In this document: positions 32,572-36,893 of the stretch, piece after piece
Numbering within the stretch: the first letter of the stretch is position 1
How the letters are laid out: each line of letters opens with the position of its first letter
Source: an uncultured bacterium
GTDB lineage: Bacteria > Electryoneota > RPQS01
Assembly: GCA_963735175.1 (NCBI GenBank)
Contig: CAVTJX010000017.1
Coordinates: forward strand, 1,793 to 65,792
DNA length: 64,000 nucleotides
Direction of reading: 5' to 3'
Translations under genes and position numbers: made by a program
The notes under the pieces: generated by a model
The model's input: the letters and a program-made list of their open reading frames with translations, nothing else
Told to the model about the DNA's origin: nothing
Database searches by the model: none

Positions 32572-33552
32572 TCAATCGCGAAAGAGTTCCATCAGAATCT
32601 GCACCGCGTTGGAGGCCGCGCCTTTGCGCAAGTTATCGCCCACGGCCCAGAATTGCAGCCAGCGCGGATCGTCGGGCGATTGCCGGAGGCGGCTGACGAA
32701 GATTTCCTGCCGGCCGGCAATTTCCAGCGGCGTGGCGTAGCTTTCGGCGCTGTAGATCATCCCCGGCATGGCGCGGAAGGCCGCTTCCAATTCCGCGCGC
32801 GACAGGACACGGTCGCATTCGCAGGTCACGGCGGCGGAGTGGCCGACGCGGACGGGAACGCGCACGGTGGTGGTGAAGACCGCGAGGCGCGGCAGTTCCA
32901 GCAGCTTGCGCAGTTCCTCGACCACCTTGCGCTCTTCGTCGGAGCAGCCCCTCGGCGTCAAACGGGCCGATCTGCGGAAAGACATTGTGCGCGATGACGC
33001 GGGGATAAACGCGGGCCTGCACCGATGGCATCGGCCAGTTCGGCCTCGAGTTCGGCCAGTGCATCCTGCCCCGAGCCGGAGACGGACTGGTAGGTGTCGA
33101 CGATGACGGTTTTCAAGCCCGCCGCGCGCGCCACGGCGGCCAGTGGCAAGACGACGACGCTCGCCGAGCAATTGGGATTGGAGATCAGATTGCGATGGGC
33201 GGCCAGCGCGCGACCGTTGACCTCGGGGATCACCAGCGGCACGTCGGGGCTCATGCGGAATTCGGCGGAATGGTCGATGACAATAATGCCCGCCTCGCGG
33301 AAACGCGGCGCCCACTCGCGGGAGATCTGGCGCGAGGTGGCGAAGATCGCGACGTCGACGCCCTCCGGTACGCGCTCCAATTTTTCGAGGGCAATGGCCG
33401 CGCCGTTGAAAAGCATCGACGCGCCCGGCAGAGCCGTCGGAGGCGAACAGGCGCAGCGACGCCAGCGGCGTGTGCCATTCGGTGAGCACTTCCAGCGTGG
33501 TGCGTCCGACAAGGCCCGTGGCGCCCACGATCGCTAAACGAACCGCTTTCAA
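32572..33552 (-). CDS. asd: Aspartate-semialdehyde dehydrogenase, three +1 breaks (~33440, ~33040, ~32950)
   Basis: MKAVRLAIVGATGLVGR...LFASD.SAG | FNGAAIALEKLE...ISNPNCSASVVVLPL...DTYQSVSGSGQDAL | YPRVIAHNVFPQIGPFDAEG | SDEERKVVEELRKLL...RVPVRVGHSAAV...AVGDNLRKGAASNAVQI. Confidence 0.9.
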   Translation of the reverse strand: MKAVRLAIVGATGLVGRTTLEVLTEWHTPLASLRLFASDGSAGRVDAFQRRGHCPRKIGARTGGRRRRDLRHLAPDLPRVGAAFPRGGHYCHRPFRRIPHEPRRAAGDPRGQRSRAGRPSQSDLQSQLLGERRRLATGRRGARGGLENRHRRHLPVRLRLGAGCTGRTRGRTGRCHRCRPAFIPASSRTMSFRRSARLTPRGCSDEERKVVEELRKLLELPRLAVFTTTVRVPVRVGHSAAVTCECDRVLSRAELEAAFRAMPGMIYSAESYATPLEIAGRQEIFVSRLRQSPDDPRWLQFWAVGDNLRKGAASNAVQILMELFRD

Positions 33553-33593: not shown

Positions 33594-34646
33594 TCACGCC
33601 ACAATCTTCAGGCGGCGTTCGGGAATCACGCGGCCAACAATGGAGGCGGCAGTCACGCCCGCATCGTGCAGCGCGCGGAGCGCCTCATCGGCCTGTGCCG
33701 GCGGCAGCACCGCCAGTAGTCCGCCCGAGGTTTGCGCATCGTACAAAAGCCAGACGAGGCTTTCGGCCAGGGACGCATCCGCATCGACGAGGCCGTTGAA
33801 GTAGCGGTAATTGGAAAAGGTCCCGCCGGGGAATTTGCCGCCCACGGCCAGCTCGGGCGCGGCGGCATAGAACGGCACGCGACCCAGCCGGAATTCCATG
33901 CCCGACGCGGGAGGCCTCGGCGATTTCAAGCGGCGTGACCGATGAGGCCGTTGCCGGTGATGTCGGTGCAGGCGTGGACGTCGAAGCGCGCGAGAGTTCC
34001 GCCGCGGCGCGATTCAGAGTCTTCATCGCCGCAATGGCGTCGGCGGCGGCTTCCACCGTCAGCATTTCGTTCTTCAGCGCGGTGGTGATGATGCCCGTAC
34101 CCAGCGGCTTCGTCAAAATCAACACGTCGCCCGGCTGCGCGCCTTCATTCGTCCAGTAGCGGCCGGCGGGCACGAGGCCCGTCACCACCATGCCGTACTT
34201 GGGCTCGGGATCGTCGACGGTGTGCCCGCCGACGACGGCAATGCCCGCCTCGCGCGCCTTCTCCGCGCCGCCGCGCAACACCTCGCGCCACGGCTCGGGA
34301 CCGTACTTGCGCGGAAAGCAGCAGATGTTAAGCGCGAACAGCGGACGGCCGTTCATCGCGTAGATGTCGCTCAGCGAATTGGCCGCGGCAATCGCGCCGT
34401 AGTCGTACGGCATCGTCCACGACGGGCGTGAAGAAGTCGACCGTCTGCACCAGCAGTTCGCCCGAGGGCAAACGGTAGACCGCCGCGTCGTCCTTATGCG
34501 AAATGCCGACGACGAGATTCGCGTCTGTGGGGACGGGCAGGCCACTCAAAATCTGATCCAGCTCCGCCGGATCCATCTTGGAGGCTCAACCCGCGCACTT
34601 GACGAGATGCGGTGAGCTTAAGTAGTTCGTCTTTGGTATACGCCAT
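33594..34646 (-). CDS. selD: Selenide, water dikinase with in-frame UGA (selenocysteine) at 34586..34588; about 5 additional frame breaks
   Basis: MAYTKDELLKLTA.LVKCAG-U-ASKMDPAELDQILSGL...VDFFTPVVDD|PYDYGAIAAANSLSDIYAMNG...GGHTVDD...LTKPLGTG...FDVHACTDITGNGLIGH... The UGA sits at the Cys/Sec position of the Gly-rich loop (A. aeolicus SSGCAAK). Confidence 0.85.
34555..34588 (-). promoter_or_regulatory. Sec UGA codon plus candidate SECIS hairpin
   Basis: UGA-12 nt-GAUCCGG-CGGAG-CUGGAUC: a 7-bp stem including one G.U pair, starting 12 nt after the UGA. Confidence 0.45.
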
Positions 34647-34656
34647 CTTGAAATGC

Positions 34657-36893
34657 TCAAAACAGCTGAAATGCCAAAGAAACCAAAATGTGACCGATAC
34701 AGAATAGATTATTCGTCGGCGGCGGACAAGATTCGGGATAGAGGCGGCGATAGGCGGCGCGGTGTTCGATGTTGCGTTTGACGAAGAGCCGCGTCTCGCG
34801 GAAGGGAATGCGCTCAATGAACACGTCGCGCTCGCGCATACCGAACTTTTCACGTACCACGCCTGGGCGCGCGATTCGCCCGGCGTTGTATGCGCACAGG
34901 ACAAGGATCGTGTCACCGTGAAATTCTTCGAAGAGGCCAGCCAGGTGCGCAATGCCCAGTTCGAGATTGTGCAAGCCGGATCGTAAAGCCTGCTGGCGGA
35001 CGTGCGCAGACCGAGCTTGCGCGCCTCGAGGCGGGCCGTGGCCGGCATGAGCTGCATCAGGCCAATCGCGCCCGACGGGACTGATGGCGCCCGGATTGTA
35101 ATGGCTTTCCTGGCAGATGAGGCCGAACGACAAAGGACGGATCCAAGCCGTATTTTTCGCTCAGACGGCGGATGTCCTCGTCGTAAGCGCAGCGGATAGG
35201 CCGTGCTGAATGAAATCCGCCGGACGCGGTCCGTCGGAGCGCAGATAGGCTCCCAGGTCACTGAGAATAACCAGCCAGGCGGCGGAACGGTTGCCCTGCC
35301 AGAGCGTATGCTGCGCTTTCCACCAGATGAAACCATCGGTGCCGGGCAGTTCGCGGCGCGCCAGCGGCCATTCGCGCATGGCGAGATCCGACAGGCGCAT
35401 CGCGGTCAGCATCGCAAATTTGCGGCTAGTGCGGGCCGTAGGACCAAAGTTCGTCAAGGGACGGCGGGATCAGACGGCCGCTGCTTCGCGCTGCACGCGA
35501 CCGGCATGATCGCGCCGGAAAGCACGGCGTAGTAGGAAAACGGGAAAGCGGGCGAGGAGGTCGTCTTCGCGGGCCTGGGCCTCGGCGGACTGTCCGGCCA
35601 TTGCCGCCGCGCGGCTGCTCCAGTAGCGACCTGCCGAGGCATAATCGGAGCCATCGTTCAGGTCGGCCAGCCGCTGAAAGATGGCGGCGGCCTCGACCAT
35701 CTGATTGGCTTCCCACAGGGCGCGGCCAAAGCGCCAGAGGCAGTCGGCCTCTTCGCTGGTGCCTTTCCGCAGCTGCACGACACTCGCGATAGGCTGTCAC
35801 CGCCTCCGCCGGGCGTTGGCCCGGTCAAGGTGCAGCATGCCGAGCAGATTGAACGCTTCCGCCACCGTCTGGGGATCGTTCAGCGCTTGAGTGGCTAGTT
35901 TCCAGCGCGGGAATGGCGATGCCGTCCTGATCGGACAGGTAGGCCGAGCGTCCGAGGTAAAGCCGTGCCCGGTACTGGTAAGTCTCCCTTGGAAAAGCGC
36001 CGCAGGTAGTCCTGCAACGTCAGAACCGCGTCCCGATGCCTCCCGAGGCCACTTTGAAAGCGCCCCCGGTAATAGTCCAGGATTTCGTCGTTCGGGCCGG
36101 TTCCCAAACTGCGGGCGATTTCGCTGACCCGATCGAGACCGACGGCAAAGCTCCCGCCTCTCCTCCAACGCCTGAAACTCCGCTTCGAGTTCGGTTTTGG
36201 TTTGGGCGCGCGGTGCGTGGGCAAATTTCTTTTTGTAATTGGCAAGCAGGGATTGAATCTGCTGTGCTTCCGGAGTTGCGGGAGCAAGTAAATATGCCTG
36301 CCAGAGGCGGTTTACAGCCTCCTTGTGCCGACCGGCCGTCGCGAGGGCCTCGGCGGCGACTTGAGCCAGCTCTCTGCCGATCCGGAATTGGCGCAACACT
36401 TCGAGCGTGGCGGTCCACCAGATGCAGCAGGTCGTCCGGACGGGGCTCAGCGCGGAGGCCAAGAGCCAGTTCGAAAAGGGCTTGGTGTGCAAAGATCGAC
36501 GCAGTGTCCTCGCTCAGCCGCGCCCAGTGCGTACGGGCGAGGGATGTCCGTTTTGCCGCTGTCAGGGCATCGGCTCGCAGCCATTCGGCATAATCCTCAA
36601 GGTCAGCGGGAACCCCTTGATCGAGGTTCAGCAACACCCCGGCCGGATCGTTGTCCTGACGGGCAGACCAGGCCAACAGGAAATTTGCCATCGGTTTCGT
36701 GCAACCCAGGCCACCGTCTTTAGCTGTGTGCAGAAGGTTTACTGCCGGCGGCTTTGTTGCCCGCGCCCCGCAAATCCCAGTACTGGGCAAAACAGGCTGA
36801 GTCCTCGGCCAGAGGACCCGCCACAGACAGAGTGGTCAGGCAAAAAAGCCCAATGAGCGGCAGAAGCAGGAAGGAAGTCAAGTTGCGAAGCAT
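34657..36893 (-). pseudogene. slt: Slt70-like soluble lytic murein transglycosylase; many frame breaks (at least 7)
   Basis: Signal peptide MLRNLTSFLLLPLIGLFC. Superhelical N-domain fragments are spread over several ORFs. SLT catalytic region ...QESHYNPGAISPVGAIGLMQLMPATA...AYNAG...FIERIPFRETRLFVKRNIEH..Y. Pieces are in ORFs 36720.., 36020.., 35797.., 35470.., 35161.., 34494.. and 34657... Confidence 0.7.

Follow-up and report, generated by a model that had tools for sequence, protein, structure and literature searches.

Among bacterial selenoproteins, SelD and FdhA are the two with the widest distribution (PMC1794560). Two SelD proteins with solved structures serve as references here: the selenocysteine (Sec)-type enzyme of A. 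aeolicus (2yye/2zod, Sec13Cys) and the enzyme of E. coli (3u0o), which has Cys in place of Sec and carries Cys17 and Lys20 in its catalytic loop. In genes for Sec-containing bacterial SelD, such as that of A. aeolicus, the UGA lies near the 5' end and the SECIS is located inside the open reading frame (ORF), and the gene described here has the same layout. As for the SECIS itself, the type found in E. coli fdhF is reportedly (Liu et al. 1998; Zhang & Gladyshev 2005) a minimal upper stem-loop at a fixed short distance past the UGA, with G-U in the apical loop.

The window, meaning the whole stretch of 64,000 nucleotides that was analyzed, contains on its minus strand a selD gene (selenophosphate synthetase; selenide, water dikinase) at 33594..34646, recognized from HMM scores, structure alignments, and comparison with relatives. 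As assembled, the gene is 1053 nt long, corresponding to 349 codons plus a stop after allowing for five single-base indels. The 349-residue read-through protein, joined across the breaks, reaches 359.8 bits with the model TIGR00476 (cut-off, 125), the family to which the A. aeolicus enzyme also belongs, and 320.4 bits with NF002098 (cut-off, 299). At E-values of 3e-73 and 6e-69, respectively, it aligns over its full length, without gaps at the junctions, with the A. aeolicus structure 2yye and the E. coli structure 3u0o, sharing the fold and the catalytic loop register of the latter. The start codon is the ATG at 34644..34646 (minus strand; MAYTKDEL...), and the N-terminus that follows, MAYTKDELTKLTHLV(R/H)CAGU, is also present in the closest relatives. 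The terminator is the TGA at 33594..33596 (minus strand; ...RRLKIVA-TGA), which gives the same gene length as in relatives.

Identity to the seven closest relatives, in all of which the gene measures 1050 nt, is 69 to 76%. The best-matching named genome record is a metagenome-assembled genome (MAG) of candidate division KSB1, with 84% identity over the N-terminal 216 residues, and the nearest SelD entries in the protein database carry KSB1 names. No near-identical intact allele was found in a set of 5.8 billion proteins, where the best SelD match is 76% identical. It is very probable that the selD gene found here belongs to a candidate division KSB1 bacterium and encodes an ordinary Sec-type selenophosphate synthetase, with the five indels most likely having arisen as consensus errors in the assembly. 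Compared to A. aeolicus selD, then, the gene comes from a different lineage, candidate division KSB1, and is interrupted by five indels as assembled; as a Sec-type selD it is a further case of a well-known gene type.

The in-frame UGA is located at 34586..34588 (minus strand). Starting from the ATG at 34646, the minus strand begins MAYTKDELLKLT, and after a phase shift of one base it continues as HLVKCAG-TGA-ASKMDPAELDQIL, so that the frame around the TGA (34588..34586) reads HLVKCAG-U-ASKMDPAELDQIL and contains the motif LVKCAG-U-ASK. Alignment and conservation assign this codon to a putative Sec at residue 20, in the motif C-A-G-U-A-S-K. The sequence-only reading had placed the TGA at the catalytic Cys/Sec position of SelD, and the alignments with the two solved structures bear this out: U20 matches the Sec13Cys residue of the A. 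aeolicus chain (2yye; motif SSGCAAK) and Cys17 of the E. coli chain (3u0o), where GAGCGCK has its first Cys. Three residues further on, the Lys is conserved as well (U20-A-S-K23 versus C-A-A-K in 2yye and C-G-C-K in 3u0o), so the Sec of the A. aeolicus enzyme occupies the same place in the loop and likewise precedes x-x-Lys. The loop differs from the reference chains on its other side, since the KSB1 gene has C-A-G-U and neither the A. aeolicus nor the E. coli chain has a Cys three residues before its Sec or Cys. This upstream Cys (CxxU; 34586-34597, minus strand) occurs in all 45 aligned relatives of the KSB1 phylum and in many other Sec-type SelD proteins.

Conservation of the UGA was examined in a protein search of 60 related genomes, covering members of the same family as well as more distant ones within the phylum. 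Nearly all of them have a single full-length SelD match, in one unbroken frame with exactly one TGA, and TGA stands opposite U20 in every one of the 45 relatives whose loci were read and aligned. Across 80 selD loci from many phyla, this codon is TGA in 63; all but one of the remaining 17 encode Cys there, with TGC or TGT. Sec insertion at codon 20 is therefore what the position of the UGA and its conservation suggest, and the sequence-only reading was right that the stop alone gives no ground for calling the gene a pseudogene.

Two other readings of the UGA can be weighed against these data. One takes it as a genuine stop, with a functional SelD of 326 residues starting at Met24 (MDPAELD...). 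An ATG does lie four codons past the UGA, and gene callers produce 326-residue proteins in dozens of relatives, but this form would be left without the catalytic loop, Sec/Cys plus Lys, that aligns to the solved SelD structures. Moreover, the 19 codons 5' of the UGA are kept in frame as protein among relatives (e.g., MAYTKDELTKLTHLVRCAG-U-ASKMDPAELD), and both the covarying SECIS hairpin and the Sec machinery described below speak against a stop at this position. A start at Met24 is thus highly unlikely. The other reading is a genome-wide reassignment of UGA, for example to Trp or Gly, for which nothing specific speaks beyond its being a general possibility in uncultured lineages. The same position is Cys in Cys-type homologues, tRNA-Sec, selA, and selB are present in the genome, selD itself terminates with TGA, and the rpoB genes of relatives contain no internal TGA in ~1265 codons. 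The last two observations indicate context-dependent recoding rather than codon reassignment, which we regard as extremely improbable. In particular, since the gene's own stop is TGA, UGA would be read as Sec only in the context of a SECIS.

The selD locus should consequently be annotated as encoding a 349-residue selenoprotein, neither a pseudogene nor a 326-residue protein, the latter being the form that databases carry for dozens of KSB1 relatives. The database SelD entries of the closest relatives are mostly 324 to 326 aa long and start at the Met four codons past the UGA; the catalytic loop is absent from these deposited entries.

A candidate SECIS follows the UGA closely. Its upper hairpin, GAUCCGGC-GGA-GCUGGAUC, lies at 34555..34573 (minus strand) and is supported by folding and covariation. 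A spacer of 12 nt (GCCUCCAAGAUG) separates the UGA from the hairpin, so the loop begins 20 nt past the UGA. The sequence-only reading had proposed a 7-bp hairpin, GAUCCGG-CGGAG-CUGGAUC, 12 nt downstream of the UGA; it was placed correctly and is the same helix, which gains a closing C-G pair in the minimum-free-energy fold (GAUCCGG(C)-GGA-(G)CUGGAUC, 34573..34555), giving 8 bp and a GGA loop. The 48-nt segment starting from the UGA has a folding energy of -21.3 kcal/mol and a z of -3.43; 200 dinucleotide shuffles yielded no fold as stable. The whole predicted structure, which includes a weaker lower stem (CCAAGAU / AUUUUG.G), extends over 34541..34585 (minus strand).

Covariation was assessed in 45 Sec-type selD sequences, which align without gaps and are related by descent. 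The upper helix is 92.2% paired in these sequences and shows two-sided changes at 6 of its 8 pairs. One of them is A-U in 29 sequences, G-C in 13, and G-U in 2, and the next is U-A in 33, C-G in 6, U-G in 3, and A-U in 1. For the whole structure, the observed values were reached by none of 500 shuffles, and sliding the partners by 1 to 3 columns lowers its pairing from 77.8% to between 27 and 44%. The lower stem is only 61% paired in relatives, with some compensatory changes, and can be counted only as a tentative part of the predicted structure. The SECIS-like character that the sequence-only reading had ascribed to the hairpin from its spacing is thus backed by a loop at +20 and by a helix that is conserved and covaries in 45 relatives.

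The hairpin coincides with strongly conserved codons (DPAELD), and its conservation is partly at the protein level. Some of the paired changes, however, alter the protein encoded by both arms, turning Asp..Asp (GAU/GAU) into Gly..Gly (GGC/GGC), and a further compensatory change couples Asp -> Ser with GAU -> GAC. Such changes are hard to explain by protein constraint alone, suggesting that the RNA pairing is under selection. As a control, we compared the 45 nt past the codon between the two types of selD genes: Sec-type genes have a mean folding z of -2.07 (n = 109), whereas Cys-type genes show little excess structure there, with a mean z of -0.68 (n = 18; Mann-Whitney p = 1e-4).

The bSECISearch model has a conserved G in the apical loop (G-U in E. 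coli). Among the KSB1 relatives, the apical loop is GGU in 21, GGA in 17, and GGC in 2, and a U at the third position is not conserved. In bacterial SECIS elements, the apical loop lies 16 to 37 nt from the UGA (PMC10778597), a range that includes the +20 loop of the selD hairpin. At the gathering level, a scan of the window with Rfam gave only two tRNAs and the SRP RNA, and a permissive scan of 34450-34680 (E <= 10) matched no family on the minus strand, its single hit being a chance-level match to rpsB sRNA on the plus strand (E = 7.6). That Rfam has no match is little surprise, given the diversity of bacterial SECIS elements, which single models capture poorly (reviews; PMC12013277).

The sequence-only reading had predicted that the organism has a full Sec-decoding system, and a search of the genome found tRNA-Sec, selA, and selB, all on one contig, C18. 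The tRNA-Sec gene (C18:63478-63574) scores 55.1 bits against RF01852 (gathering score, 47); its anticodon, UCA, sits in the loop CUUCAAA, its variable arm is long, and ARAGORN likewise calls it SeC (tca). The selA gene (C18:43057-44401) scores 469 bits against TIGR00474 (cut-off, 267.9) and 405 bits against Pfam SelA, with one frame break. The selB gene (C18:48938-50819) is in five frame pieces, none of which reaches the TIGR00475 cut-off on its own, and together the pieces contain GTP_EFTU, Beta-barrel_SelB, SelB-wing_2, and SelB-wing_3, all above the Pfam cut-offs. ARAGORN also called a second tRNA-SeC (C16:79397-79476; 80 nt, tca), which is probably spurious, as Rfam matches it to neither tRNA nor tRNA-Sec at E <= 1.

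Neither a selenouridine synthase (selU, TIGR03167) nor an FdhA above the cut-off was found in the assembly, which is 82.8% complete; the FdhA search gave only weak matches, namely nuoG and a molybdopterin oxidoreductase of the Cys type. SelD may be one of very few selenoproteins encoded in this genome. The oxidoreductase, which has a Tat signal (C12:59980-60802), is truncated by the contig end and has a frame break; its likely Mo ligand is Cys instead of Sec. Sec-decoding organisms without FdhA are known to have a Sec-containing SelD (PMC1794560), and the Sec-type SelD found here without FdhA agrees with this published pattern. Candidate division KSB1 is thereby added to the many lineages that combine a Sec-type SelD with full Sec decoding.

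The SelD/SelA/SelB/SECIS scheme is established in bacteria (PMC9312934, PMC1794560), and a corresponding pathway can be proposed for this organism. [quoted passage not shown] The 8-bp hairpin with its GGN loop, 12 nt past the UGA, would act as the SECIS and recruit SelB-GTP carrying Sec-tRNA(Sec) while the UGA is in the A site. The selD mRNA would itself be a client of Sec decoding, its UGA codon 20 being read as Sec, and this Sec would sit in the flexible, Gly-rich N-terminal loop C-A-G-U-A-S-K and handle selenide at the ATP site. Sec insertion at codon 20, the binding of SelB to the selD hairpin, and the enzymatic activity of SelD in selenophosphate synthesis are predictions here.

Apart from the Sec UGA, the assembled selD still does not form an uninterrupted frame, owing to the five single-base indels, which were located by alignment with the seven closest relatives. 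Break 1, also seen in the three-frame translation, is one extra base (ACC-G-CAT versus ACG-CAT in relatives) at 34610..34612, between KLT and HLVKCAGU. Break 2 is an extra G (GAT-G-CCG-TAC) at 34410..34412, between VVDD and PYDYG. Break 3 is the only deletion, one base missing from GAA-CT_-CTC at 33993..33996 (about 33995), inside AAE-L-LARFDVH. Break 4 is one extra base at 33930..33932, between GLIGHA and LEIAEA, and break 5 is another at 33902..33904, where the gene has GTC-GGG-C-ATG and the relatives have GTC-GGC-ATG, between SRVG and MEFRL (all on the minus strand). The four insertions thus fall at gene positions of about 35, 236, 716, and 744 (34610-34612, ~34411, 33931, and 33903 in the window). 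The +1 break that the sequence-only reading had noticed upstream of the UGA is real, although its position had to be corrected from ~34600-34606 to 34610..34612, a few bases 5'; the four other breaks had gone unmentioned. Five frameshifts as assembled would trigger a pseudogene annotation regardless of the UGA.

Are these breaks a sign of decay? If selD were a true pseudogene, with five real indels in a genome that is losing the Sec trait, one would expect to see what the assembly shows: a gene broken five times, with selA and selB broken too (in two and five pieces, respectively). Genes that cannot be pseudogenes are equally broken, however. The rpoB gene (C16:332158-335921) is in five frame pieces and that for EF-Tu (tuf, C16:340622-341484), beside a tRNA-Trp/Thr cluster, in three, whereas rpoB is never frame-broken in eight relatives, six of which have it as one open frame of ~1265 codons and two of which have it cut by contig ends. 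Within selD, the indels sum exactly to the length of the gene in relatives (1053 = 1050 + 4 - 1 nt in the nucleotide alignment with the seven closest of them), there are no in-frame nonsense substitutions, and the read-through protein scores far above the family cut-offs. Divergence by codon position is 0.20/0.15/0.53, compared to 0.21/0.11/0.55 in an example between intact relatives; this pattern, like that of intact genes, indicates that every segment of selD still looks selected. A decaying selD is accordingly quite unlikely.

Alternatively, the breaks might be real in the DNA and be decoded through ribosomal frameshifting, whether programmed or pervasive, or through editing of the transcripts, a reading with which the predominance of insertions (4 of 5 breaks in selD) would fit. 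No sequence motif common to the five breaks, such as CTT-C, is evident, though, the frames of selD and of the other broken genes are unbroken in relatives, and the assembly profile suggests consensus errors, making such decoding highly improbable. The assembly consists of 19 contigs, the largest of 944 kb, and the combination of few long contigs with a marker completeness of 82.8% is the profile expected of a long-read assembly with residual indels. Because rpoB and EF-Tu are equally broken, nonsense substitutions are lacking, the codon pattern is that of selected genes, and the assembly has this profile, the five selD indels are most likely assembly errors and not decay, and the real gene is most likely an intact ORF of 1050 nt.

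The genes examined point to a genome-wide indel problem, at roughly 1 to 2 per kb. The neighbors of selD in the window, asd (32572-33551, minus strand) and a gene for an SLT-like lytic transglycosylase (34657-35336, minus strand), each appear as several overlapping frames, which fits indel errors all along the window. The gene asd also follows selD in at least one relative. Indel polishing is needed before any frame break in this assembly, including those in selD, selA, and selB, is read as biology.

Returning to the known SECIS elements, the selD hairpin resembles the E. coli fdhF type in lying within the ORF, 12 nt past the UGA, and in having conserved loop Gs (GGA/GGU/GGC). It appears to differ in loop geometry: the predicted KSB1 loop can be drawn as a triloop, GGN, or as a pentaloop, CGGNG, with no bulged U evident. 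A second comparison is offered by the Sec-type selD genes of Chloroflexota, Myxococcota, Actinomycetota, and other phyla, which are orthologous, have the UGA at the same position, and in many cases have a similarly placed proximal hairpin. Unlike the KSB1 genes, they commonly have a distal hairpin, GCGCAG-GUN-CUGCGC, encoded by the codons for LAQVL. In predicted folds of the 0 to 50 nt past the UGA, this distal hairpin was found at 43 of 63 Sec-type loci of other phyla but at only 3 of 47 KSB1 relatives. Its loop begins at least 30 nt past the UGA, and 25 of the 43 loci also have the proximal hairpin. The proximal hairpin with a GGN cap, in turn, is predicted in 42 of the 47 KSB1 relatives.

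This contrast between proximal and distal hairpins, a modest point that rests on predicted folds, may reflect turnover of the SECIS within one orthologous gene. We can only tentatively suggest that selD in KSB1 and nearby members of the FCB group is recoded by the proximal 8-bp GGN hairpin (+20) alone, while most other phyla keep a distal, fdhF-like G-U hairpin (~+30). If so, the SelB of KSB1 would recognize a different loop geometry, and selD would provide a natural series for studying the co-evolution of SECIS and SelB. Set beside the known systems, what this locus adds is probably only mild novelty: a KSB1 proximal hairpin with a GGN loop, in place of the distal hairpin with a G-U loop that is common in other phyla.
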